Below are positions 1-45,625 of a stretch of 64,000 nt of DNA, in pieces; the stretch's first letter is position 1, and every line of letters begins with the position of its first letter. Position numbers and translations under genes: made by a program. The notes beneath the pieces were generated by a model, which did no database searches, was not told the DNA's origin, and saw only the letters and a list, made by a program, of their open reading frames with translations. Origin of the DNA: an uncultured Pseudomonadota bacterium (lineage in GTDB: Bacteria; Pseudomonadota; Alphaproteobacteria; RF32; CAG-239); the NCBI GenBank assembly GCA_949292335.1, contig CASEYY010000031.1, forward strand, positions 1,075-65,074, read 5' to 3'.

Positions 1-951
1 GCCTTAGAAAATAGTAATATAAATATAAAGACTATGGGAGATCAAGGAAGAGGTTTTACTCTTTATAATTCAACAAATTGTATCATAGGCGGTAATTTAC
101 AAATTTACTCAAGTAATGGGTATGGGTTTTATAATTATCCTGGTAGTACCAGCAATAATACAATTACAATTCAATCGACGGCTAAAGTGTATATGGATAC
201 GGCACTGACACCTATTTATAACGGATACAAAGGAACTCCGGGGGCTAATGTTTTGGATATTGCTGCAGGAGCAAGTTTGGCTTTTGCTAAAGATGGTAAT
301 GTGAAGTGGTATAAACTCAAGACAGATTACCATGATGAAAATACATCAACGAATAAAAACAATGAAATAACTTTTGACAATGTGGACACCTTATTAAATG
401 TTGAGAACACGGCGGCGTGGAGTTTGCCGGAGGATATTATTGCAGGGGTGGTAGAGGTTATGGATTTGAGCGGATATTCCGCAAGCTATCAAAAAATATT
501 AGATGAATATGATAATTTGATAATGGATTCCTCTTATCAAGGCGTCAATCTGCTCAACGGAGCATTAAAAGAAATCACCCTAAACGAAAACCGTTCGAAT
601 AAATATAAAATCGAGGGCAAAGATATGTCTTCAAAAAACATCGGTTTAAGCCGAGATAAATGGGAAACCTTGGATGATGTAACTAAGGCGATGAATGAGC
701 TGACGAATGCCATAAATTCAATAAGAAGTTTCCAAGAAGAGTTGGGCAATCATTATTCGATAATAAAAACCCGTATTAATTTTACCGAAGCTATGACCGA
801 TGTATTGGAAACCGGTGCTGATAATTTAACCTTGGCCGATATGAACGAAGCTTCGGCCGAATACTTGACTTTGCAAACCCGTCAACAGTTGGCGATTAAT
901 TCCCTATCTCTTGCTTCACAATCCGCCCGCAGTGTCTTGAGCTTATTCTAA
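1..951 (+). CDS. flagellin-family protein, 5'-partial (flagellin C-terminal helices; FliC/FlgL-like)
   Basis: The reading frame is open from base 1 with no stop before the ATG at 34, so the gene begins upstream of the window. The C-terminus ...RSFQEELGNHYSIIKTRINF...LADMNEASAEYLTLQTRQQLAINSLSLASQSARSVLSLF follows the conserved flagellin C-terminal pattern (LGA.QNR ... QIL.QAG.S.LAQAN..PQ.VLSLL). The preceding ~200 aa are Gly/Asn/Ser/Thr-rich and not flagellin-like. Confidence 0.5.
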   Translation, partial: ALENSNINIKTMGDQGRGFTLYNSTNCIIGGNLQIYSSNGYGFYNYPGSTSNNTITIQSTAKVYMDTALTPIYNGYKGTPGANVLDIAAGASLAFAKDGNVKWYKLKTDYHDENTSTNKNNEITFDNVDTLLNVENTAAWSLPEDIIAGVVEVMDLSGYSASYQKILDEYDNLIMDSSYQGVNLLNGALKEITLNENRSNKYKIEGKDMSSKNIGLSRDKWETLDDVTKAMNELTNAINSIRSFQEELGNHYSIIKTRINFTEAMTDVLETGADNLTLADMNEASAEYLTLQTRQQLAINSLSLASQSARSVLSLF

Positions 952-1032: not shown

Positions 1033-1075
1033 AGGAGGTTTCTGTATTAGTTGCCCATTATACGCCGTTTTTGTC

Positions 1076-1260
1076 ATTCTCGGGCTTGACCCGAGAATCT
1101 AATAAAGCAATGTGCCAATACTTATGAGATCCTCGGAATAAATCCGAGGATGACGAGGCTGTGTGGTGGTCGAGGGTGACAGTTGTTTGTGGTAGCTGGG
1201 GATGACAATGGGCTATGTTGTCCAAGGGTGACAAGTGGTGTGGAGCTCAAAGGTTAACTG
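1076..1260. repeat. cluster of REP-like palindromic repeat units (tctcggg-N5-cccgaga, atcctcgga-N5-tccgaggat, then GGGTGACA-type short repeats)
   Basis: Read directly: gtcattctcgggcttgacccgagaatc and gatcctcggaataaatccgaggatgac hairpins, followed by gagggtgacag / ggggatgacaatggg / agggtgacaag. Same family as the 9890-10560 cluster. Confidence 0.7.
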
Positions 1261-1355
1261 TAAAATCAGCTTACTTTCGCAAAAAAACTCTTGTCAAAAC
1301 TTGCTATTATAATACAATTATCATAATTTTCACAACTATCAGGAGTTTTTAAATC

Positions 1356-2102
1356 ATGACCGCTCTAATCTTTCCTCTGGGACTAATAATTGTTATGTTT
1401 GTTGTTGCCGGATTTCGTATTCTGTTTCAATATGAAGAAGGCGTTGTTTTCACCCTTGGTCGCTACACCAGCACACGCGACCCCGGTTTAACCTGGATTA
1501 TTCCGCTCATCCAAGAAATGCGTAAAATAGATATGCGGATAATGACGGTTGATGTTCCCAAACAAGAAGTTATGACCAAAGACAACATTCCGGTCAACAT
1601 CAATGCCGTTGTTTACTTTCGGGTTAAAAATCCCGAAGCCGCGGTTATTCAAATTTCAAATTATGTCTTTGCGGTGATTCAGCAAAGCCAATCTGCCCTC
1701 AAAGATGTTATCGGCACCAATGATTTGGATGTAACTTTATCCGAACGCAAACGCATTGGCGAAGAAATCAAAAACATTGTCGACGCCGCCACCGATAAAT
1801 GGGGAATTGACATTGAGGCCATCAATGTCCAAGAGATTGAATTACCCGAAGACATGAAACGTGCGATGGCCAAGCAAGCCGAAGCCGAACGCAACCGCCG
1901 AGCCATGATAATTTCGGCTCAAGGCGAAGTCGAGTCCGCCCAAAAGATGTTGGAAGCGGCCAAAACTTTAGAGAAAAGCCCGATTACCATGCAGCTTAAA
2001 ACCCTACAAACCATCAAAGACATTTCGGCCTCACAATCGCAAACCATTGCTTTATTTCCGACCGAATTGAGCACTCTTTTAGGTAATATTCAAAAGAAAT
2101 AA
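1356..2102 (+). CDS. SPFH/band-7 (stomatin/HflC-like) membrane protein
   Basis: N-terminal TM helix followed by a typical SPFH core (...IPVNINAVVYFRV.DP....I.NY...I.Q.....L....G...LD..L..R..I...I). A strong hairpin plus T-run follows at 2109-2147. Confidence 0.8.
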   Translation: MTALIFPLGLIIVMFVVAGFRILFQYEEGVVFTLGRYTSTRDPGLTWIIPLIQEMRKIDMRIMTVDVPKQEVMTKDNIPVNINAVVYFRVKNPEAAVIQISNYVFAVIQQSQSALKDVIGTNDLDVTLSERKRIGEEIKNIVDAATDKWGIDIEAINVQEIELPEDMKRAMAKQAEAERNRRAMIISAQGEVESAQKMLEAAKTLEKSPITMQLKTLQTIKDISASQSQTIALFPTELSTLLGNIQKK

Positions 2103-2108
2103 TTTCTC

Positions 2109-2147
2109 ATATCCCCGAATTATCTTTTGGTTCGAGGATATTTTTTC
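2109..2147 (+). terminator. rho-independent terminator after the band-7 gene
   Basis: atatccccgaa / ttcgaggatat stem (11 bp, 1 mismatch), then TTTTTT. Confidence 0.55.
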
Positions 2148-2235
2148 TAAACAAGCAAATCCGATTGACAAAAATGCAACCATAGTATATGTTATGCGGC
2201 ATCACATAAATATTATTAACTAAATACAATTAATT

Positions 2236-3117
2236 ATGAACAGAAAAAACATGATAGCAAGTGTCGAGAACGACAAAGTATTACAGCATTTTTTACTCAA
2301 TGGAACACCCATTCAAATTCTAAAAATGTACACCGACGGTTACCCGCTTGATGCCCAAGGGCTCGAAGCTCTGTACTGCCGTGGATTTTCCAAAGGAGAA
2401 ATCTTGCCTATGATCAAACAGGCAAGTAATATTTCGTCCCCGCAAAATCTCTACGACTGGCTGTGCGGTTTTATAGGTAAAGACGAAGCTGATAATTTTG
2501 TCGCCGACATTATTGGTTTTGATACCGAGATTCTAAAACAGATACCGACCAAAATTCTGGCGGAGCATTCGCGTTGGGACATTTTGGTAGAGATGAGAGC
2601 CGACGATATTTTATATCATTATAAAAAATATGATATGATGTCTACGGAAGGGCTTGCCAAACACCAACTTTATGATCTCTTTTTCAAAAAAGGCGGTATC
2701 TTAGTCACGGGTAATAATACAGGTGCCCTCAAGTATTTGGAAGAAAACAAGCTTTGGCGGATTATATGTGCTAATGCAAGCTATTGGTCAATCCACAAAA
2801 AAGCCCAGCCTTTTCTTGATATCTTAATCAGGAACAAGTGCTTTGATGATATTTTAAGTCTGACCGACGGAGCGAAGCTTCTGGCTGAATCTGCCGAAGG
2901 GATTGCTTTTCTCAAACGCAAAAACGAGCAACACCTCTTAGCAAAGGCCAAACTCTACGAAGAAATAGACTGGAATGTCTATTTTGTGCAAGACTATGAA
3001 CGTGCCGTTGCCAGTGCCGTCAAAGCAAAAAAGTGGCAAGTATTAGTCGAACACGAATGTTCAAAAGAACTCTGGTCCAACAAGAAATATCTGTACTGGC
3101 TCAAGAGTCTGCTGTAG
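2236..3117 (+). CDS. hypothetical protein (no recognisable domain)
   Basis: ORF of 293 aa with reasonable spacing to a terminator at 3122-3161. No motif I can assign. Confidence 0.5.
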   Translation: MNRKNMIASVENDKVLQHFLLNGTPIQILKMYTDGYPLDAQGLEALYCRGFSKGEILPMIKQASNISSPQNLYDWLCGFIGKDEADNFVADIIGFDTEILKQIPTKILAEHSRWDILVEMRADDILYHYKKYDMMSTEGLAKHQLYDLFFKKGGILVTGNNTGALKYLEENKLWRIICANASYWSIHKKAQPFLDILIRNKCFDDILSLTDGAKLLAESAEGIAFLKRKNEQHLLAKAKLYEEIDWNVYFVQDYERAVASAVKAKKWQVLVEHECSKELWSNKKYLYWLKSLL

Positions 3118-3121
3118 GAAT

Positions 3122-3161
3122 AAACAAAAGCTCCTGTTTTTCATGACGGGAGCTTTTGTTG
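3122..3161. terminator. bidirectional terminator hairpin between convergent genes
   Basis: aaaagctcc ... ggagctttt, a 9-bp stem with an A-run before and a T-run after. Confidence 0.55.
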
Positions 3162-3163
3162 TA

Positions 3164-5380
3164 TTAAAAGGCATATTGTATTCCCAGTGTTATCTCGTAA
3201 GGTACCTCAATTTTGCTGTTCATCTCGGTTAAAGCCTCCAAGTAAGCAAAATTTCCGTCACCCCAGTAGAAATTCACTCCGCCGCCCAACTCATAACGCA
3301 AGGAAGACATATCCTCATCAAAAGTATAATCGGCGACTTTGACTACCGACTTATTATCGCTGTCATGCACCAGACCAAATCTGGCAAAACCTTCGACTTT
3401 TTTATCTTCGGCCAGATTAAAACTTTTTCCGACGATTGCGTCAATTCTCTGCCTCAAATAATTTGCACCTTCGGCCTCAACTCTGGTATTAAAATTGGTT
3501 CGATAATCAATACCGTTGATGTGCATATATTCCACACCGAGAGATGTTTCAACAAACCAGTCTTTTTTAAGTTCAAACCTCTTGCCCAAGTTTGAAGCCA
3601 GCAAGACGCTATGAGCCCGATATCTGCTTTCTACATCTCTGCCGGCAGGAGTATAACTTTTAATTTTTTGCTTATGCCAAAAATAAGTTCCGACCAAATC
3701 AACAAACCACTTGCTTGGGGTTTTGAATATACCATACAAACCCAAAGATTTAGTATCACCGTCGCCCCTGCCTTCCAAGTGATAAATTTGCTTAGAATTA
3801 GTATATCCGGCAAAGGCTCCCAAAGTGAGCGTACTATCCCAATCCCAGTTTACATCTTGGTCATAACCGGCCTCGGTTCCGTAGACATCGATTCTGCTTT
3901 TGCCGCCGGCATTATAATCCAGTTCAATTCGTCTGCCCAAACCTTTCACCCAAAGGCGATTTTTGGGCTCGCTGTTTTTTCGCAAACCGCGAACATGGCT
4001 GTATACCGGATTTAGATGGGTATAAAACAGAGAAGACAGTGCCGTATAAGTATTTTTGGCAATTACCGAGCTTTCGGTCACATCCTGAGTTTTAACCAAG
4101 AACCAATTACCGCCTTCCGGAGCAAGGGTATATTCATAGGCCCCGACATCCACCGCGTCGCCTACCAAATAAAAGCTGTCTGACGCGGTATTTTGGGCAA
4201 TAATCTGATATTTTTCGGGGGTATTACCCTCAAAACTATAATCATGCACCACAAGCCCGAAATTACCCGCCCCTCCGACTATGCTGATTTGATCGGATGT
4301 ATCGTCGGATAAACTGGTACTTATATCAAAGACCGCACTTCCGTTGAGATTGGTAAAACTGACATTGGTAAAATTTTCATCATTATAGGTAACATTGATG
4401 GTAGCATTACTTACCGTCAAATCATTAATTGTATTACCGCCGACGATATTTAGCAAGCTATCGCTAAAAGAGTTTGTTCCGCTGAGTGTTCCGCCCGCAT
4501 AAAGCGAAACGATACTACCGCTTTCGGCCGTAACCCCTGATGATTCCCCGCCCGAATAAATGGTCTGAAAACCTTTATTTTTTAGAGTTGTATTCTGAGC
4601 CGTACCACCGGAATAAATTCTCTGATAAGCATTATCGATTGTTGTATTATCGGCCGAGCCGTAAACCGACATTGATGCCGAATTAAGCAAAGCTGTATCT
4701 GTTGCCGTGGCCGAAGAATTGATTTCCACCCATCCGCCGTTTGAAGTAATATTGGTTACATTTCCGCTGCCATAAACATAAATGCTTGATGATGAATTAA
4801 CCAAAGCACCATTTGCCGTTCCGTAAACCCTTATCCTACCGCCGTTTGATACTACAGCATCACTTGAGGTTGCACCGGCATCTATTTGCTGTGTAGCACC
4901 GTTAATTTGCGCACCGATAGATGTACCGCCGCTTAATATTTCTTGCGTACCTCCGTTAATAACGGCATTTTCATCTGTACCTGAAACATTCATCTTACCG
5001 CTGTTTAATACTGTATTTTTTGCCGTTGCGCCATTCGCCACAGTCATGGTTCCGCCGTTAATGGTGGTTCCTTCGGCATTTCCGCCTGCAGCCACACTCA
5101 TGGTTCCCCTCGAAGCCACTGTCGAATTATAAGCATTACCGCCGGATTGAACATTTTGCTGTCCATAAGAATATATATAGGTATTATATGCAGCCCCGCC
5201 GTCCATAATCGTTTGGGTAGAATAAATAGTATAATTCTGAGTAGTACCGTGCACATTCTGCACAAACGGTGCATCAACATAACCATTACTAACGGTATCT
5301 CCTACTGCAACAACTTGAGTTATAGCCTTTGCATTAAAAGGAATTGTTGTCATCATCAAAGTATAAACAATTTTTTTCAT
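3164..5380 (-). CDS. classical (type Va) autotransporter: signal peptide, Gly/Asn/Thr-rich beta-helical passenger, C-terminal beta-barrel translocator
   Basis: N-terminal MKKIVYTLMMTTIPFNAKA signal peptide. Long passenger with reiterated ..GG.A.NT.. / ..VSNGG..-type beta-helix repeats. C-terminal ~270 aa with alternating hydrophobic beta-strands ending ...TLGIQYAF (terminal aromatic residue typical of OM barrels). Confidence 0.8.
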   Translation of the reverse strand: MKKIVYTLMMTTIPFNAKAITQVVAVGDTVSNGYVDAPFVQNVHGTTQNYTIYSTQTIMDGGAAYNTYIYSYGQQNVQSGGNAYNSTVASRGTMSVAAGGNAEGTTINGGTMTVANGATAKNTVLNSGKMNVSGTDENAVINGGTQEILSGGTSIGAQINGATQQIDAGATSSDAVVSNGGRIRVYGTANGALVNSSSSIYVYGSGNVTNITSNGGWVEINSSATATDTALLNSASMSVYGSADNTTIDNAYQRIYSGGTAQNTTLKNKGFQTIYSGGESSGVTAESGSIVSLYAGGTLSGTNSFSDSLLNIVGGNTINDLTVSNATINVTYNDENFTNVSFTNLNGSAVFDISTSLSDDTSDQISIVGGAGNFGLVVHDYSFEGNTPEKYQIIAQNTASDSFYLVGDAVDVGAYEYTLAPEGGNWFLVKTQDVTESSVIAKNTYTALSSLFYTHLNPVYSHVRGLRKNSEPKNRLWVKGLGRRIELDYNAGGKSRIDVYGTEAGYDQDVNWDWDSTLTLGAFAGYTNSKQIYHLEGRGDGDTKSLGLYGIFKTPSKWFVDLVGTYFWHKQKIKSYTPAGRDVESRYRAHSVLLASNLGKRFELKKDWFVETSLGVEYMHINGIDYRTNFNTRVEAEGANYLRQRIDAIVGKSFNLAEDKKVEGFARFGLVHDSDNKSVVKVADYTFDEDMSSLRYELGGGVNFYWGDGNFAYLEALTEMNSKIEVPYEITLGIQYAF

Positions 5381-8184: not shown

Positions 8185-9867
8185 ATGACCGAAGAAAACA
8201 CTCCAGAAAAAAAGAAAAGACCAAGAATAACTCGTTCCACTCAAACAGCAAAACCTGTTGTTACCATTCGTGCCCGTAGCTCCCAAAATCAGCTTAGCAG
8301 TTCTGCAGGACATGACCGTACCGAATTTTTGAAACACCTTCTACACCACACCGAGGCTGTCTGCGCCAGAAATTTTAACAAAGTCACAAAAATGCTCCTC
8401 GATCTCAAAATTCCTGCCGAAGAAAAAGCCAGAATAAGCGACATTCGTTTTTCTGATTACGAAACACTTGCAGACAGTGTCAACAAATATCGTCATGTAT
8501 TTGAACGCCAACTTGTAGTCGAAACCGCCAAAAAATATCTCAACGACATTACCGACAATGTATCTCGTATCATGGCCGACGAATACTTTCCCGACACCCC
8601 CCAAGACCCTGCCACTCGCTTGGAGCTTGCCGAAAAGATACTACAACTTGCTCTTGAATCGCCAAAAAAACTTAACAATGCTGCACCGGAAAAGTTGGTC
8701 AGCAAAATAATGCCGGAAATTGCCGCCAAGGACAGCCGCAGTGACTCTGCCGTTAGCGGATTTCTGCGTTGTATGGCCGCCGGCAAGTTTTACGCTCCTG
8801 TGTCAAACAATCGCAACAACCTTTATAAGCTTTCCGATACTTTCAAAGCCTTTTGGCAAAAGAACCCCAACCTAGAACAAACCAACAAGCCCAAATATCA
8901 GCCGGAAGAATATCTGTTTTTCGATTTAGGAGCAGACGGCAAACCGCTCAGTCCGCAATGGTATGCGGTCAGATGCAGCAAAAACTTTCGTAAAATAGCG
9001 CATAGTGTTGCCCAAAAGCTTGCCGCACACAATATTTCACCCGAGCAAGCCTACAAACTCAACAGTTATGACATAGCTTTCCTTCTGGGCAATAACGGTT
9101 CAGAACGTTGCCACGACACACCTTTTGCCAAACTCAGCCCCAATGTTAATGACAGCCCCTACCAAGAGTTTGCTCAAACTATGGGATACCTTCTCACCGT
9201 CGGACAATCGGACAATTCACGCCCATCAAAAGAAGATATCAACATTTGGAAAAAGTTTTTTGCTACCAAGGAAGAGGTTGCCGAATACGAGAATCACGGC
9301 GATGATATGCCGATTATAGAGTTTCGACACAATGCGCAAAAAATATATCAAACTCTCAAACAAGAATGTGCTTCTAACAACATTGACAATAATTTTATGT
9401 CCTCTTGGATTGAAGATTTAATAACCAAAAAAAATGTTTCAACCACTATTTACAACAACAATTTTGGCACCTTTCCTGCCAAGATAGACATTCACCACAA
9501 CGACCGCTTGTCCGAAGCATCAAACTGCCCCAATCTAGATGCGGCAATTCTTAATGACCCCAACAACTACAGCTTGATGATTCAGTATCTGGAAACCTCT
9601 TTGGATATTCACGGAGACAAACACAAAGGAGAGAGTGCTAACTTCTACATTAAGGATTACGAAAACAACTCCCGTACCTACAAAAACAGCAATCTTCCCA
9701 ATGCCGAAGGAAATTATCTTATAGCCACCTCGGAGATGACACACCTAAGACGAATAAAAATGCACTGTTGCGAAGATTACGATCCTTCTTTGGCCAATAC
9801 TCCAACCTATCCCAAAGAAAAAACCGCTCAGAAACAAGTATCCAAAGTGTCTCAGCACTCCAGATAA
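8185..9867 (+). CDS. hypothetical protein, 560 aa, basic N-terminus, no recognisable domain (candidate secreted/effector-like protein)
   Basis: N-terminus MTEENTPEKKKRPRITRSTQTAKPVVTIRARSS is Lys/Arg-rich. The remainder is low in hydrophobic segments and has no catalytic motif I recognise. The upstream region carries a GGATAAC SD-like stretch and TGTCA/TGACA repeats. Confidence 0.55.
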   Translation: MTEENTPEKKKRPRITRSTQTAKPVVTIRARSSQNQLSSSAGHDRTEFLKHLLHHTEAVCARNFNKVTKMLLDLKIPAEEKARISDIRFSDYETLADSVNKYRHVFERQLVVETAKKYLNDITDNVSRIMADEYFPDTPQDPATRLELAEKILQLALESPKKLNNAAPEKLVSKIMPEIAAKDSRSDSAVSGFLRCMAAGKFYAPVSNNRNNLYKLSDTFKAFWQKNPNLEQTNKPKYQPEEYLFFDLGADGKPLSPQWYAVRCSKNFRKIAHSVAQKLAAHNISPEQAYKLNSYDIAFLLGNNGSERCHDTPFAKLSPNVNDSPYQEFAQTMGYLLTVGQSDNSRPSKEDINIWKKFFATKEEVAEYENHGDDMPIIEFRHNAQKIYQTLKQECASNNIDNNFMSSWIEDLITKKNVSTTIYNNNFGTFPAKIDIHHNDRLSEASNCPNLDAAILNDPNNYSLMIQYLETSLDIHGDKHKGESANFYIKDYENNSRTYKNSNLPNAEGNYLIATSEMTHLRRIKMHCCEDYDPSLANTPTYPKEKTAQKQVSKVSQHSR

Positions 9868-9889
9868 ACATTTATATAATGGCTTTTTG

Positions 9890-10325
9890 TTTTATTCGAT
9901 TCTCGGACGCCAAAAAAGTCATCCTCGGATAAAAAAGTTACCCTCGGGCACCACAAAAAGTCATCCTCGGACTTGTTCCGAGGATCTTCCCTCTGTCGTC
10001 ATCCTCGGACTTGTTCCGAGGATCTCCCCTCTGTCGTCATCCTCGGACTTGTTCCGAGGATCTCCCCTCTGTCGTCATCCTCGGACTCCGACCCGAGGGT
10101 CTCTCTGCCATTACCATCCACAACACACTCCAGTCATCCTCGGATAAAAAAGTCACCCTCGGACGCCACAAAAAGTCATCCTCGGACTTGTTCCGAGGAT
10201 CTCTCTGTCATCACCATCAGCCACAACACACTCCCGTCATCCTCGGACTTGTTCCGAGGATCTTCCCCTCTCCTGTCACCCTCGGGCTCCGACCCGAGGG
10301 TCTCATAAGCTGTAGCACATTGTTT
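9890..10325. repeat. dense array of REP-like palindromic units including a perfect 38-bp x3 tandem (9960-10073)
   Basis: gtcatcctcggacttgttccgaggatct(t/c)ccctctgtc is repeated three times head-to-tail. A ~68-bp larger unit (gtcatcctcggataaaaaagtYaccctcggRcRccacaaaaagtcatcctcggacttgttccgaggatc) occurs twice. A ccctcgggctccgacccgaggg hairpin also occurs twice. Confidence 0.85.
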
Positions 10326-10329
10326 TTAT

Positions 10330-10556
10330 CAGATTCTCGGGACAGGCCCGAGAATGACGAAAAGAAAAAACAAGCCCGAGAATGACAAAAAAAGAAAAAA
10401 CAAGCCCGAGAATGACAAAAAAAGAAAAACAAGCCCGCAAAAGCGAGGAAAAAAATCCCGCATGAGAATGACAATAAAGAAACCCTAAAACCACAACTAA
10501 GAATACAAGTCCCAAGAATGACAATAAGAACAAATCCCAAGCACCTTCCTAAATAA
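10330..10556. repeat. short tandem repeats of the aagcccgagaatgacaaaaaaagaaaaaac type (about 5 copies, degenerating)
   Basis: gagaatgaca is the reverse complement of the tgtcattctc arm seen at 1076. Period ~29-30 bp. Confidence 0.75.
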
Positions 10557-10736
10557 TACACTATTTAATCATCCGGCTTGGGCGACTCTGCCGATAATTT
10601 TTACAAATTTGTCAAAATTATCACAAAACCGTAACAAAAAAAACCGCGATTTTCACGACACTTCCCCCATACAGTCCTTGATTTTATTACATTTTATCGT
10701 TTTTATAAAAAAATTGACAAAAATGACAAATACCCC

Positions 10737-10765
10737 TTGACCCACCCCTCAAAATATGGTATAAA
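10737..10765 (+). promoter_or_regulatory. sigma70-like promoter (TTGACC-17-TATAAA) for the small OMP gene
   Basis: ttgacc / cacccctcaaaatatgg / tataaa, read directly. Confidence 0.4.
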
Positions 10766-10870
10766 TAAATCATAAGAAAAAATTATTTATTTATTATTTA
10801 GAAAAAGGGACAAACAGGATGCCCCTTTCGCCCAAAGAAGATAATTTCCCACGGCGATAAAACCAAAAAT

Positions 10871-11416
10871 ATGAAAACAATGAAATTTGCAGCCGCTTTG
10901 ATTATGCTTACAATGTCTGCCACCTCTGTTTTTGCTGCTAACCGCAGCTCTGACCCAAATTTTAAGTGGGATCGGCAGAACGGAGAGGTCTTGGTAGCCG
11001 CCTCTGGCTACACTGACATGGGATTCAGTGGACTAGGTATAGGAGGCGAAGTTGCTTACCTCTTCCCTGGGAAACTCGGCGTTTTCGCCAGCTTCAAAAC
11101 GGCGGTATGCGACTACCAGCTGCCGTATAAAGAAATTGAGACCTGCCGCTGCAACAGTGGTCTCATCGGCATCATTGCCGACACAACACCGGATTTTCCG
11201 GTCGGCTTTTTCTTCAAAGCCGGAGTTGGGTTGGCCGACGGTCTCAAAACCCTCCCGTTGTTTAACCTCGGGTGTGGAGCTAGAGCCTCCTACGGGATGT
11301 TCTACACCCGTATCGGAGTCGACTACAATGTAGAGTCGACGTTCGGAAACAGCGACGGCTGGTGGAATTTAAGATTCGGCCTCACGGTCGGAATTAGCAT
11401 TCCAACCAGCCGATAG
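10871..11416 (+). CDS. small outer-membrane beta-barrel protein (OmpW/OmpA-like 8-strand barrel, inferred)
   Basis: Signal peptide MKTMKFAAALIMLTMSATSVFA. Alternating-hydrophobic Gly/aromatic-rich strands. Followed by a terminator at 11427-11462. Confidence 0.5.
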   Translation: MKTMKFAAALIMLTMSATSVFAANRSSDPNFKWDRQNGEVLVAASGYTDMGFSGLGIGGEVAYLFPGKLGVFASFKTAVCDYQLPYKEIETCRCNSGLIGIIADTTPDFPVGFFFKAGVGLADGLKTLPLFNLGCGARASYGMFYTRIGVDYNVESTFGNSDGWWNLRFGLTVGISIPTSR

Positions 11417-43011: not shown

Positions 43012-43476
43012 TTATTTTTGCCACCTGATTTGCCGCAAAGCTTCGCCCACTACCATTGCCGCCGATATTGCCATATTTATTGAACGAGTATCCGGCGACA
43101 TCGGAATTACCACTCTGGCGTCAGCCAAATTATGCACTTCTTCGGGTACTCCCGCCGATTCGCGTCCCATCAAAATAATGTCGTTTTTTCTAAATTGAAA
43201 ATCGGTATAAGGTTGGCTGGCTTTGGTTGTCATCAAAACGATGCGCCCGTATTCTTGCGGGTTTTGAGTACGAAACTGCAAAAAATCATCCCAGGAATTA
43301 TGCCTGCGATATTCCACCTTATCCAAATAATCCATACCGGCGCGTCGCATTGCCTTTTCATTAAACACAAAACCGCAAGGTTCAATAATATCCAAAGGCA
43401 AATCCAAACAGGCTCCCAGCCTGAGCAAAGTTCCGGTGTTTTGCGGAATATCGGGTTGAAACAAAGCCAAACGCAT
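43012..43476 (-). CDS. trmL: tRNA (cytidine/uridine-2'-O-)-methyltransferase TrmL (SpoU/TrmH family)
   Basis: MRLALFQPDIPQNTGTLLRLGA... and ...ILMGRESAGVPEEV......V.IPM....RSINMAISAAMV trefoil-knot motifs. 154 aa. Confidence 0.85.
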   Translation of the reverse strand: MRLALFQPDIPQNTGTLLRLGACLDLPLDIIEPCGFVFNEKAMRRAGMDYLDKVEYRRHNSWDDFLQFRTQNPQEYGRIVLMTTKASQPYTDFQFRKNDIILMGRESAGVPEEVHNLADARVVIPMSPDTRSINMAISAAMVVGEALRQIRWQK

Positions 43477-43518
43477 TTTTATATCCTCTAAACAAGAAAG
43501 TTTTAAAAGTTATACGAG

Positions 43519-43866
43519 AAGTAAATATACAAGTAGGAATCCGCTCTTTTTTATTTATTCAATGTTTAGCGAGATTAATACGCAGTATATTTACGACGAA
43601 GTGTACACAAAAGAGGTACATGAGGAGTAAATATACAAGTAGGAATCCGCTCTTTTTTATTTATTCAATGTTTAGCGAGATTAATACGCAGTATATTTAC
43701 GACGAAGTGTACACAAAAGAGGTACATGAGGAGTAAATATACCAGTAGGAATCCGCTCTTGTTTATTTATTCAATGTTTAGCGAGATTAATACGCAGTAT
43801 ATTTACGACGAAGTGTACACAAAAAAGGTACATGAGGAGTAAATATACAAGTAGAAATCCGCTAAA
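43519..43866. repeat. 106-bp tandem repeat, 3 full copies plus a diverged partial 4th
   Basis: gagtaaatat recurs at 43625, 43731 and 43837, giving an exact 106-bp period. Copies differ by 2-3 substitutions. Each unit contains the AGTGTAC...GGTACATGA hairpin core. The terminal partial copy ends in cgctaaacattgaataa, the reverse complement of the unit-internal ttattcaatgtttagcg. Confidence 0.9.
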
Positions 43867-44971
43867 CATTGAATAAAAAGTTTAGCAAATCGCCGTCTTG
43901 CACCACATACTCTTTTCCTTCGGAACGCATTTTGCCGGCTTCTTTGCAGGCCTGTTCACCACCCAAAGTAACAAAATCATCATAAGAGATGGTTTCGGCA
44001 CGAATAAAGCCGCGTTCAAAGTCCGAGTGAATGATACCGGCACAGACCGGTGCTTTCGAACCTTTAACAAATGTCCAGGCTCTGACTTCTTTGGGGCCGG
44101 CAGTAAAATAAGTTTGCAGGCCCAAAAGATTGTAACCCTCACGAATAATTTTCGACAATCCGGTTTCTTTTAAGCCCAAAGTCTCCAAAAATTCTTTTTT
44201 CTCGGCTTCGTCATCAAGCTGAGCCACTTCCGATTCTATTGCCGCCGAAATAATTACCGCACGAGCATTTTCTTCTTTGGCCTTTTCAAACACTCTTTTA
44301 GAAAATTCGTTACCCTCTGCGGCCGCCGCCTCATCGACATTACATACATACAATACCGGTTTTGCGGTCAAAAGCTGCAACATTTTATAGGTTTTATAAG
44401 CATCTTTATTGCTCTCATCGGGAGCGGCGGTACGAGCCGGCTGTCCCATTTTCAAGGCTTCGATAATCGGAGCCATAACCGACACATTAAGGATGGCTTC
44501 TTTATCACCGCCTTTGGCTTTTTTCTGAGCCTGATCAAACCTTTTTTCCAAAGATTCCAAATCGGCAATCATTAACTCGGTTTCAACAATTTCGGCATCA
44601 CGAATAGGGTCGACCGAACCTTCGACATGGGTAATATTTTCGTCTTCAAAACAACGCAACACATGAATTATGGCATCCACTTCACGAATATTGGCCAAAA
44701 ACTGGTTGCCCAAGCCCTCACCCTTGGAAGCACCTTTAACCAATCCGGCAATATCAACAAATTCGAGTTGGGTCGGCACAATTTGTTTGGGTTTTACAAT
44801 ATCGGCAAGCTTTTGCAACCTCTCATCCGGCACTGCCACCCTACCGGTATTTGGTTCAATCGTACAAAACGGAAAATTGGCTGCCTGTGCCGCAATGGTT
44901 TGGGTTAAGGCATTAAACAAAGTAGATTTTCCCACATTAGGCAATCCGACAATACCGCAATTAAATCCCAT
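43862..44971 (-). CDS. ychF: ribosome-binding ATPase YchF (Ola1)
   Basis: [18 protein letters not shown].....[19 protein letters not shown]-terminal TGS domain. Confidence 0.93.
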
Positions 44972-45052: not shown

Positions 45053-45625
45053 TCAGTTCTTTTGTCTCATTCCCAAGCAAGACGAATATTCGGCAATTCC
45101 TTTTTCAATCAACACTTCTATGGTATCTAAAATCAGCTCAATATCTTTTTGCAAAACTTCTTTTTCAGCCTTGCCGAAACCGGACAACACATGATTAACC
45201 ACCTCTTCGCCTTTGCCAATAGGATGCCCGACCCCGATTCTGATACGATTGTAATTCGGCGTAATTGCCGCATCTATTGATTTTAATCCGTTATGTCCGC
45301 CGGCACCACCGCCGAGTTTGGCTTTTATCTTGCCCAATGGCAAATCCATATCATCGTGAATAACTATTATGTTTTGCGGTAAAATCTTATAAAAATTAGC
45401 GGCTTTTACTACTGCATTACCGGACAAATTCATATAGGTTTGCGGTTTTAAGATATAAACCTTTTCTGCCCCAATTTTGCCTTCGGCAATCAAGGCGTCA
45501 AATTTGCTCTTAAACGGAGCAAATCCAAACTTTTGTGCCAAAGCATCAACCGTCATAAAACCGGCATTGTGACGGGTATTTTCATATTCTTTTCCGGGGT
45601 TTCCCAAACCAACGATTAAAAACAT
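45053..45625 (-). CDS. pth: peptidyl-tRNA hydrolase
   Basis: LIVGLGNPG..Y..TRHN.GF......L. 190 aa. Confidence 0.92.
   Translation of the reverse strand: MFLIVGLGNPGKEYENTRHNAGFMTVDALAQKFGFAPFKSKFDALIAEGKIGAEKVYILKPQTYMNLSGNAVVKAANFYKILPQNIIVIHDDMDLPLGKIKAKLGGGAGGHNGLKSIDAAITPNYNRIRIGVGHPIGKGEEVVNHVLSGFGKAEKEVLQKDIELILDTIEVLIEKGIAEYSSCLGMRQKN

Follow-up and report, generated by a model that had tools for sequence, protein, structure and literature searches.

A strain-variable hairpin-repeat island downstream of a 560-aa gene in an uncultured proteobacterium is probably a mosaic cluster of Ssn-related motifs

NTS/SRM repeats belong to a family described in 2025, which is cut as single-stranded DNA by small GIY-YIG nucleases named Ssn (Chenal et al., Nat Commun 2025, PMC11893778). 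SRM stands for Ssn-related motif and is the generalised form of the NTS/dRS3 repeat of Neisseria. Ssn is a single-domain GIY-YIG nuclease of about 95-115 aa (cd10448) with Tyr 6 and Tyr 17 as catalytic residues. In the systems studied by experiment, the Neisseria and Wolbachia pairs, the hairpin of the repeat forms only in single-stranded DNA, where it is bound by Ssn. There the enzyme nicks a single strand a few nucleotides 5' of the motif (PMC11893778). It does not bind RNA, and in vitro it cuts a stem rebuilt from two half-sites. Cutting affects recombination of incoming or exposed single-stranded DNA around the repeat. In Neisseria the repeats adjoin surface genes and were proposed to shape recombination there (PMC11893778). 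The literature that was searched contained no follow-up papers on SsnA, and a full-text search for the hairpin sequence presented here found no paper.

In the 64-kb window, which is the whole stretch of DNA analyzed here (64,000 nucleotides), an intergenic, non-coding island of nested hairpin repeats was found at 9890-10560, as reported in the initial annotation. The island (~670 bp) begins 23 bp past the stop codon of a 560-aa gene. It contains eight full hairpin units (consensus CGTCATCCTCGGACTTGTTCCGAGGATCY) and several 5' half-units, with a 38-bp tandem (3.4 copies) and a 30-bp array (3.3 copies) (Table 1). The full unit is oriented and about 29 nt long. It consists of CGTCAT, a 9-bp stem with a 5-nt loop (CTTGT or CTTGA) and ATC, which abuts the palindrome; as a top-strand oligo it reads CCTCTGTCGTCATCCTCGGACTTGTTCCGAGGATCTCC. 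The inner stem bases CTCGG/CCGAG are fixed and the outer bases co-vary. All three arm types named in the initial annotation, ATCCTCGGA/TCCGAGGAT, ACCCTCGGG/CCCGAGGGT and ATTCTCGGG/CCCGAGAAT, are present in the island and are compensatory variants of this one stem. All ten full copies of the window have GTCA in front of the stem and TC behind it, and nine of the ten have intact stems, with the CGTCAT and ATC flanks kept. As single-stranded DNA the full hairpins fold with -8.9 to -9.3 kcal/mol (z about -4 to -5), for example -8.9 kcal/mol for hairpin 2 (z = -3.8) and -9.0 kcal/mol for hairpin 8 (z = -5.2). The hybrid unit at 10073-10102 combines mismatched arm types, therefore its stem is imperfect, and its single-stranded fold was no better than that of shuffles. 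The half-units account for about half of the island and do not fold on their own: the segment 9918-9959 is unstructured (0 kcal/mol), and folding of the minus-strand array at 10342-10534 gave no hairpin. Seven of the eight full island hairpins are located on the plus strand, which is the sense strand with respect to the 560-aa gene. Hairpins 7 and 8 are convergent and 27 bp apart.

The 38-bp unit is composed of a 27-nt SRM hairpin and an 11-nt C/T-rich linker, TCYCCTCTGTC, which is the counterpart of the C-rich upstream flank in other genomes (139 foreign copies among the matches listed). It had been described as a perfect threefold repeat; the tandem was confirmed by TRF, but the copies are not perfect, since one C/T difference occurs in the linker of copy 1. 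A composite said to occur twice with ~68 bp is indeed a repeated pair, but with a length of 71 nt (9917-9987 and 10132-10202, 96% identical). A further composite of ~100 bp was found by TRF in 2.7 copies at 10035-10304. The roughly five copies of a 29-30-bp unit correspond to the TRF array at 10342-10437 and degenerate copies at 10446-10475 and 10506-10534. This minus-strand array is common to the strains compared. The family recurs beyond the island, as was expected, both in many genomes and in a second cluster of the window. There, a smaller cluster had been placed at 1076-1260; it consists of a convergent full pair followed by minus-strand partial copies (1073-1260). The hairpin at 1072-1100 is a variant which was found five times in the first batch of fetched loci, among the matches listed. 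All ten full copies are located in these two intergenic clusters and none in the other ~63 kb of the window. The motif GTCAYYCTCGG with at most one mismatch occurs 20 times in the 64-kb window, compared with 1.5 expected copies and six in the largest shuffle, which is an enrichment of about 13-fold over chance. 19 of these 20 copies lie within 1073-1232 or 9918-10522, and all 15 exact copies are inside the two clusters. A CRISPR array was considered as well and rejected: the spacings are 19, 23, 38, 59 and 61 bp, what would be the “spacers” is repeated as well, and units are found on either strand.

Table 1. Coordinates of the repeat features in the two clusters of the 64-kb window (E, covariance-model E-value).
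Feature	Position	Strand	Evidence or remark
Two 5' half-units (hemi-SRMs) GTCATCCTCGGA, GTTACCCTCGGG	9918..9959	+	5' arm kept, 3' arm missing, A-rich spacer after each
Full SRM hairpin 1 AGTCATCCTCGGACTTGTTCCGAGGATCT, opens the 38-bp tandem	9959..9987	+	SRM search sequence; E = 3e-7
38-bp tandem, x3.4	9960..10087	+	TRF, 98% matches, score 249
Full SRM hairpin 2	9997..10025	+	SRM search sequence; 48.5 bits, E = 5e-13
Full SRM hairpin 3	10035..10063	+	SRM search sequence; E = 7e-10
Hybrid SRM, 5' arm ATCCTCGGA, 3' arm CCCGAGGGT	10073..10102	+	SRM search sequence; weak match, E = 7e-4
Second hemi-SRM pair GTCATCCTCGGA, GTCACCCTCGGA	10133..10174	+	Within the repeated composite, 96% identical to 9917-9987
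Full SRM hairpin 5	10174..10202	+	SRM search sequence; E = 5e-10
Full SRM hairpin 6	10235..10263	+	SRM search sequence; E = 2.5e-12
Full SRM hairpin 7, ACCCTCGGG/CCCGAGGGT variant, left half of the central convergent pair	10274..10303	+	E = 2.5e-6
Full SRM hairpin 8 CGTCATTCTCGGGCCTGTCCCGAGAATCT, right half of the convergent pair	10331..10359	-	E = 5e-12
Hemi-SRM array, unit GTCATTCTCGGGCTTGT + T-rich spacer	10342..10534	-	Period 29-30 bp, x3.3
Full SRM TGTCATTCTCGGGCTTGACCCGAGAATCT, second cluster	1072..1100	+	E = 9e-12
Full SRM, convergent with 1072-1100, 26 bp away	1127..1155	-	E = 1e-11
Trail of partial 5' copies CGAGGGTGAC, GGGGATGAC, CAAGGGTGAC	1156..1232	-	Sequence copies

For comparison with the described family, we applied the SRM search sequence HGTCWYN(0-2)YYVSBRHN(0-5)WNVSBRGN(0-2)RNCYNB (PMC11893778). 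This permissive pattern has six exact matches in the window, all of them in the island and on the plus strand (starting at 9959, 9997, 10035, 10073, 10174 and 10235), compared with 0.1 in 100 dinucleotide shuffles. Four further window copies fit the search sequence except for its last degenerate base. Without the last two degenerate positions, ten matches were obtained, all in the two clusters, where 0.12 would be expected. The island unit and the Neisseria NTS CGTCATTCCCGCGMAVGCGGGAATCYRG can be aligned at the CGTCAT head and the ATCY tail. A covariance model, trained on foreign copies only, recovered all ten window copies in the right orientation (E 5e-13 to 7e-4), with 38-48 bits in sense orientation versus about 20 in antisense, and nothing in the rest of the 64 kb scored below E = 0.46. 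In Rfam 15 the window had no match at the gathering score, and the island showed only sub-threshold miRNA/snoRNA noise at E up to 1. The island units fit the NTS/SRM family and are thus another example of an already described element type. The repeats of the 670-bp island are real and vary between strains, and we consider it likely that they form a mosaic cluster of SRMs.

Other genomes also carry the same hairpin. When genomes were scanned with a pattern in which the loop and two positions of the stem were unconstrained, more than 120 loci were recovered, nearly all in Alphaproteobacteria (consensus CGTCATCCTCGGGCTTGACCCGAGGATCCA); the counts of both hairpin scans are to be read as “at least” and do not represent a random sample. 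Among the matches listed, foreign copies are abundant in Rhizobium, Agrobacterium, Shinella, Mesorhizobium and Brevundimonas and are often arranged as convergent pairs, 20-120 bp apart. In 139 foreign copies listed, C occupies position -1 in 76% and position +26 in 88%. At the unconstrained stem positions of the foreign copies 99% of cells pair, compared with 26-57% in slid controls. Three pairs show compensatory changes, and the observed covariation score was reached in none of 500 shuffles. The window's exact hairpin variant is widespread in soil and marine contigs according to the metagenome scan and is not lineage-specific. Judged by these sequences, the hairpin is a pan-alphaproteobacterial element, which also reaches low-GC uncultured lineages from metagenomes.

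Among the matches listed, 19 fetched loci, mostly from high-GC taxa and fetched because they bear the hairpin, contain single-domain Ssn-like GIY-YIG ORFs of 97-113 aa. In 18 of the 19 cases the ORF is at most 230 bp away from a hairpin, and 11 ORFs have one on either side. The usual layout is SRM(+), ~50 bp, GIY-YIG gene, ~50 bp, SRM(-). Twelve of the 19 loci stem from the metagenome scan, in which the window's exact variant was the query. The ORFs were assigned by Pfam GIY-YIG and a weak match to the UPF0213 structure 1ZG2, and no NCBIfam model matched them. In the 97-aa ORF of locus L193, tyrosines stand at positions 6 and 19, near the positions of the catalytic tyrosines of Ssn. In a Pfam census of 150 randomly chosen ORFs out of 449 hairpin-adjacent ones (240 loci, among the matches listed), GIY-YIG was the commonest family with four members.

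Variation of repeat number between strains, as suspected before, was observed. The plus-strand units span ~440 bp in the window, ~300 bp in the related strains L002 and L003 and ~150 bp in L005, differences which derive from short-read metagenome assemblies and could partly reflect assembly collapse. Against collapse, L002 agrees with L003 in copy number and the independent ENA assembly L246 agrees with the window, whose island is identical to that of L246. The strains differ by whole modules, with one, two or more composites and one to four tandem 38-mers. Between the two clusters lies an 8.6-kb block that contains an autotransporter and orphan genes and is unusually divergent between strains; synteny breaks at one of the clusters. 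The repeats adjoin divergent or rearranged DNA, in line with the recombination-prone setting that had been postulated. The neighbours are surface-type genes, coding for the autotransporter, flagellin and a 181-aa OMP-like protein with a signal peptide. Pfam and NCBIfam gave no match for the 560-aa gene or its neighbours of 181, 175, 278 and 293 aa. The bracketed divergent block fits the proposal made for Neisseria, according to which recombination near surface genes is shaped by these repeats. Two Logan contigs stop within or at repeat clusters. Such clusters break short-read assemblies and breed spurious ORFs.

Other readings of the island have to be weighed against a cluster of SRMs. As an RNA-level element it would lie in the 560-aa gene's 3' UTR, its hairpins serving as terminators or as barriers to 3' exonucleases. 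The short distance to the stop codon, the sense orientation of most full hairpins and their stability (-9 kcal/mol as DNA) would suit such a role. However, no T-run follows any sense-strand hairpin, no intrinsic terminator was found on the plus strand within 9868-10870, and the terminator-like matches on island hairpins are restricted to the minus strand (9985-9963 and 10200-10178), so that the initially proposed terminator function was not borne out. The lack of Rfam matches, the half-units that do not fold, the occurrence of both orientations and of convergent pairs whatever the gene direction, and the failure of Ssn to bind RNA (PMC11893778) also argue against an RNA-level element, which is very unlikely. 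Nothing in the analysis points to mRNA stabilisation by the hairpins. The probability that the region encodes a repeat protein is close to nil: ORFs of 86-124 aa run across the repeats on both strands and a 49-aa ORF was set in the L002 island by the gene caller, but the island ORFs are repeat-derived, as had been noted, none of the periods (38, 30 and ~100 bp) is divisible by three, gain or loss of modules between strains shifts the frame, the units lie in both orientations and, among the matches listed, hundreds of unrelated genomes carry the element between genes. The GTAG head is reportedly typical of REPs. The term REP-like and a Y1 transposase as partner had been suggested in the initial annotation, and a REP/BIME-type element moved by a Y1 tyrosine transposase (RAYT) would explain the BIME-like look, with clustered short extragenic palindromes in both orientations and a conserved 5' tetranucleotide; the analogy was also drawn in the Ssn paper (PMC11893778). 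The hairpin-repeat nature stands, but the REP identity does not hold, as all copies carry (C)GTCA(T/C) instead of GTAG and the unit fits the SRM search sequence. The hairpin-flanked genes elsewhere are small GIY-YIG genes (Ssn-like in 18 of 19 cases within 230 bp, among the matches listed), while Y1_Tnp (PF01797) is missing from the 25 families listed, all families with at least two members included, for the 150 of 449 ORFs from 240 loci. A REP/BIME element is therefore hardly probable at all.

The remaining alternative concerns the nuclease. An Ssn-like ORF was not detected in the 64-kb window by phmmer and a 19-sequence Ssn profile (ORFs of at least 35 aa), the best profile match being a 35-aa fragment with E 0.058. 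No GIY-YIG gene is found among the genes called in the stretches past both window ends (~10 kb on the right), and no further hairpin occurs past the right end. Since the Ssn gene is seen neither in the window nor among the genes called beyond it, the cognate nuclease of this locus is a predicted one. The repeats might be orphan SRMs, which belong to the family by descent and, after loss or in the lasting absence of Ssn, are inert relics; the arrays would then change through nothing more than replication slippage and homologous recombination among their copies. This reading is rather unlikely. It draws on the missing gene, on the finding that Ssn is not detectable in 19% of the genomes which have more than 200 SRMs (PMC11893778), and on the confinement of all full copies to two clusters, where many are tandem duplicates of each other. 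It is countered by the intact stems of nine of the ten full copies and their conserved CGTCAT/ATC flanks, by whole modules that strains have recently gained or lost, and by the small share inspected, ~74 kb of a genome that is probably megabase-sized.

Under the preferred reading of a functional SRM cluster, the organism would encode a cognate Ssn, by which the island arrays would be cut, and slippage or recombination on the 5' side, where the nick is made, would lengthen or shorten the array. A convergent hairpin pair appears to be the basic unit, like an Ssn cassette without the gene, with outward trails of truncated 5' copies. These truncated copies occur exclusively upstream of full units, on the side of cleavage; among the 325 foreign full SRMs listed, 19 partial copies were found upstream and none downstream. 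The window shares the layout of hemi-SRM array, convergent full pair and hemi-SRM array with an unrelated MAG from the rumen. Slippage or template switching primed by the Ssn nick might lay down such trails of half-units. That the truncated 5' half-units are the footprint of SRM multiplication and not of random decay is a speculative proposal to which we assign a low probability. On a bolder view, hemi-SRM arrays could serve as natural “split” substrates or decoys for Ssn, because the enzyme cuts stems rebuilt from two half-sites in vitro. The one-sided pile-up of truncated 5' copies is a modestly new detail. Together with the strain series, the one-sided trails provide a handle on repeat expansion, and if the proposal is true, this locus and its strains make the mechanism of SRM propagation directly testable.

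Several known systems resemble the island. RIME (Rhizobium-specific intergenic mosaic elements) and other alphaproteobacterial intergenic palindromes are possible relatives; among the matches listed, foreign copies of the hairpin are abundant in Rhizobium and other genera and often form convergent pairs. Neisseria intergenic mosaic elements (NIME) are RS units bounded by dRS3. They share with the island ~100-bp composites bounded by a short inverted repeat, an intergenic and strain-variable occurrence and the vicinity of surface genes. They differ in genus and sequence, and the DNA between the hairpins of the island consists largely of truncated copies of the hairpin 5' half. REP/BIME/REPIN elements with their RAYT are similar in their extragenic palindromes, convergent doublets and mosaic clusters, and in a single-copy nuclease gene which is flanked by repeats and acts on single-stranded DNA hairpins. 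However, the enzyme is of the HUH/Y1 type there and a GIY-YIG nuclease for SRM, and the head is GTAG versus GTCAT. From the NTS/SRM repeats (PMC11893778) the island differs in its stem, CCTCGG(A/G) compared with TCCCGC in Neisseria, in its host, an uncultured low-GC (~42%) proteobacterium from metagenomes, in that no ssn gene is seen within its 64 kb, and in the 38-bp tandem and half-unit arrays, neither of which appears in the main text of that paper, where the word “tandem” is absent. It shares with them the oriented ~28-nt hairpin, which is headed by CGTCAT and has a C right after the palindrome, the intergenic, clustered location adjoining surface-protein genes and, for the identical hairpin in other genomes, the SRM-ssn-SRM arrangement. 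An apparent REP island is thereby re-filed under Ssn/SRM, a different and very recently described partnership of repeat and nuclease.

The repeats of the island are clustered in the intergenic region between the stop codon of a 560-aa gene and a 181-aa gene. In the 64-kb window the motif GTCAYYCTCGG (at most 1 mismatch) occurs in 20 copies against 1.5 expected, and 19 of these 20 copies lie inside 1073-1232 or 9918-10522. In Neisseria, about 50% of the dRS3 repeats represent a longer oriented element, termed NTS (CGTCATTCCCGCGMAVGCGGGAATCYRG), and NTS-like Ssn-related motifs (SRMs) were found in different phyla, with Rhizorhabdus and Wolbachia among the hosts (Chenal et al., 2025; PMC11893778). 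The published degenerate SRM search sequence has six exact matches in the island, compared to 0.1 in shuffles, and the other four full units of the window fail it only at the last degenerate base. NTS and the unit of the window also have the CGTCAT head and the ATC tail in common. Therefore, the island was assigned to the SRMs, with family membership given by sequence, structure and orientation. The REP-like attribution of the initial annotation names the wrong repeat-enzyme partnership.

A full unit, i.e., the complete hairpin, reads (C/A)GTCATCCTCGGA-CTTGT-TCCGAGGATC with a stem of 9 bp and a loop of 5 nt. The stem variants ACCCTCGGG/CCCGAGGGT and ATTCTCGGG/CCCGAGAAT are compensatory versions of one stem. 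Full units fold as single-stranded DNA with -8.9 to -9.3 kcal/mol (z -3.8 to -5.2); no fold was obtained for the half-units, truncated copies with the 5' arm and without the 3' arm. Seven of the eight full units in the island are located on the plus strand, and the only minus unit forms a convergent pair with a plus unit across a gap of only 27 bp. To the left of this pair, plus full units are found together with plus half-units, which consist of the 5' arm only, followed by an A-rich spacer. To the right, an array of minus half-units is located, composed of 5' arm and loop followed by a spacer that is T-rich when read in the orientation of the element. Each unit of the 38-bp tandem combines one hairpin with a C/T-rich linker of 11 nt. 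The second cluster repeats the layout of the island on a smaller scale.

Reading of 9700-10800 revealed the repeat island as initially described, with the ~68-bp composite x2 recovered as a 71-nt pair. The tandem of three 38-bp units is present but not quite perfect, and the about 5 copies of a 29-30-bp unit correspond to a 30-bp tandem plus two further degenerate 30-mers detected by repeat search. The smaller cluster of the same family does contain full units and partial copies. The island was also rightly regarded as non-coding: the periods, the module changes that shift the frame and the occurrence of units in both orientations rule out a coding repeat protein, and the ORFs within the island are derived from the repeats. 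With its irregular spacing and its "spacers" that are themselves repeated, the island cannot be a CRISPR array either. The Rfam search returned nothing for the island.

Window positions of repeat features and associated genes
Feature	Position	Strand	Description
Flagellin gene	34-951		upstream of Band7
Second cluster	1072-1232		one plus and one minus full unit 26 bp apart, followed by minus partials
Band7 region	1524-1925		
560-aa gene	8185-9867	+	left border of the island
71-nt pair	9917-9987 and 10132-10202		96% identity, repeat search
38-bp unit x3.4	9960-10087		98% matches, Tandem Repeats Finder
~100-bp composite x2.7	10035-10304		Tandem Repeats Finder
Convergent pair, plus unit	10274-10303	+	full unit
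Convergent pair, minus unit	10331-10359	-	full unit
30-bp unit x3.3	10342-10437		Tandem Repeats Finder
181-aa gene	10871-11416	+	right border of the island
SpoU/TrmL-like methylase gene	43012-43476	-	
106-bp unit x3.3	43516-43863		97% matches
ychF-like GTPase gene	43862-44971	-	
Lone hairpin	45497-45528		CGTCAAATTTGCTCTTAAACGGAGCAAATCCA, CGTCA-headed, within peptidyl-tRNA hydrolase gene

For identification of the hairpin in other genomes, one genome per species was scanned with the pattern GTCAYYCTCGGN{4,9}CCGAGRRT. This yielded at least 120 loci, and nearly all of those listed belong to Alphaproteobacteria, with hosts like Rhizobium, Agrobacterium, Shinella, Mesorhizobium, Brevundimonas, Caulobacter, Bosea and Devosia. 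Although the pattern left the loop unspecified, the exact sequence GTCATCCTCGGGCTTGACCCGAGGAT was found in 44 copies, which came mostly from the genome scan. In 139 copies, the stem positions left free by the pattern are 99% paired (TA/CG; CG/TA; innermost GC/CG/AT/TA), and conservation extends to the flanks, with C at both -1 and +26 and an upstream C-rich tract. A formal covariation count over 40 distinct copies found 99.2% of the cells paired and compensatory changes at three pairs; the observed score was attained by 0 of 500 shuffles, and slid controls reached 26-57%. A covariance model trained exclusively on foreign copies recovered all ten full units present in the window, each in correct orientation (E 5e-13 to 7e-4), with no other match of E < 0.46 in the 64 kb. 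The lone hairpin, which this model did not detect, is probably a chance occurrence.

The window's BipA gene product shows 90% amino-acid identity to that of one of the fetched loci, from an uncultured proteobacterium bin (L120), which places the origin of the window in a relative of this bin, the relative having ~42% GC. Further stem variants, GTCATTGCCGGACTTGATCCGGCAATCC and GTCATGCCCGGACTTGATCCGGGCATCC, were seen in relatives and other genomes (L120 3494-3700; L082 89-440; L112 264-620; L055 3250-4500). As they often pair convergently with a CTCGG-type unit, several SRM subfamilies coexist within a single genome. The alphaproteobacterial-type hairpin also occurs in MAGs labelled as Patescibacteria (L011, L024, L076), Terriglobia (L041, L055) and Obscuribacterales (L014), which could be due to mis-binning or horizontal transfer. 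Locus L055 (62% GC) contains an Ssn gene besides the hairpin.

SsnA is a single-domain GIY-YIG protein of 94 aa (cd10448), and its homologs have an SRM nearby in 71% and on both sides in 42% of cases (Chenal et al., 2025). The identical hairpin is linked to Ssn-like genes elsewhere. Many foreign loci contain convergent hairpin pairs 20-120 bp apart, and the pairs of L060 and L020 enclose a small gene for a GIY-YIG nuclease. By phmmer and profile search, Ssn-like GIY-YIG ORFs were identified in 19 of all fetched loci, 12 of them from a metagenome scan with the window's own loop variant GGACTTGTTCC. Eighteen of the 19 genes are located at most 230 bp from a hairpin and 11 are flanked on both sides, typically as SRM(+), ~50 bp, gene, ~50 bp, SRM(-). 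Among 150 random hairpin-adjacent ORFs, GIY-YIG was the commonest Pfam family (4 members), the remainder being assorted housekeeping families, and the 25 families listed, including every family with at least two members, contain no Y1 transposase. This census, the head sequence and the match to the SRM search sequence argue against a REP element with a Y1 (RAYT) transposase as partner, as proposed by the initial annotation, and this reading is disfavoured. The 64-kb window itself contains no Ssn gene (best profile E 0.058), and in ~10 kb past its right end neither an Ssn gene was called nor a further hairpin found. The lack of an Ssn gene in these stretches would fit orphan SRMs, units of the family in a lineage without the Ssn nuclease, a possible though less likely reading. 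A role as terminators for the upstream gene finds no support, since all sense-strand hairpins are without a T-run.

Binding of SsnA to the hairpin is restricted to ssDNA and to one of the two strands, and its cut falls a few nucleotides upstream; the three bases preceding the palindrome are important for cutting and the C directly following it for binding (Chenal et al., 2025). In N. meningitidis, its action limits integration of NTS-carrying transforming DNA, and NTS clusters adjoin membrane and host-interaction genes (Chenal et al., 2025). For the SRM cluster described here, the organism would most likely encode a cognate Ssn, which would nick exposed or incoming single strands at the arrays, with the ssDNA- and strand-specific binding and the upstream nicking taken from PMC11893778. 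Nicking and slippage between direct repeats would then drive gain and loss of modules and also the higher divergence seen in the flanking block of surface genes.

The 560-aa protein and a 578-aa relative, which share 95% identity, served to locate orthologous loci in further metagenome assemblies. The right-hand minus array of the island is kept between strains, and the variation is in the left-hand plus block, where entire modules differ: a single composite is present in L005, two composites and one additional tandem unit in both L002 and L003, and more in the window. The islands of L002 and L003, which come from different samples and different assemblers, differ by three SNPs only, and L246, which represents the window's strain in an independent ENA assembly, has an identical island. 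Two Logan contigs terminate at or within clusters; the Logan contig L001, from the window's strain, ends inside the hairpin of the second cluster. Such ends are typical of repeats, and copy numbers from short reads need confirmation. The second cluster is missing from the 95%-identical strain L002 (compared region 2940-3180, without hairpins), where MORN_2 and 371-aa genes replace the flagellin gene upstream of Band7; it is thus located at a synteny break. Nucleotide identity to L002 is 76-88% over 1260-4750 (Band7, a 293-aa gene and an autotransporter passenger), 81-86% just downstream of the island (10200-11170) and 96-98% outside these two segments. SRM clusters therefore border divergent segments, which are probably recombined, and the recombination-prone character suggested earlier was judged correct.

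The 560-aa gene is a lineage-restricted orphan, whose 90% cluster holds only 3 sequences. Its product has no Pfam or NCBIfam match and no signal peptide, shows an 18-aa N-terminal indel between strains and carries His-rich motifs near the C-terminus (IDIHHNDRL and DIHGDKHKG). The product of the 181-aa gene, with its signal peptide, resembles a small outer-membrane protein of the beta-barrel type. Elsewhere in the window, a 106-bp tandem repeat without Rfam match fills the gap between the ychF-like and the SpoU/TrmL-like gene, and every unit contains the final 17 nt of ychF (TTATTCAATGTTTAGCG) in inverted form.

For 325 full SRMs in the foreign loci L006-L245, the 120 nt on the upstream side contain 19 same-orientation 5' partials (GTCAYYCT) in total, and the 120 nt on the downstream side contain none. 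Copies in opposite orientation number 99 downstream and 24 upstream, an excess which reflects the convergent-pair rule. A layout like that of the window is present in a yak-rumen Alphaproteobacteria MAG (RGIG10323; L019, 2071-2400), with a plus half-unit array, a full plus unit, a full minus unit and a ~30-bp minus half-unit array with A-rich spacer. It is located upstream of a Band7 homolog, 35% identical to the Band7 region of the window, and the second cluster of the window likewise lies upstream of Band7. As the half-units lie upstream and Ssn nicks on the upstream side, the trails may point to nick-associated amplification. The main text of PMC11893778 does not mention half-units; "tandem" has 0 occurrences and "half" refers to in-vitro split substrates only. 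Only the one-sided half-unit trails, which may be new, and the strain series add to what has been published on SRMs.
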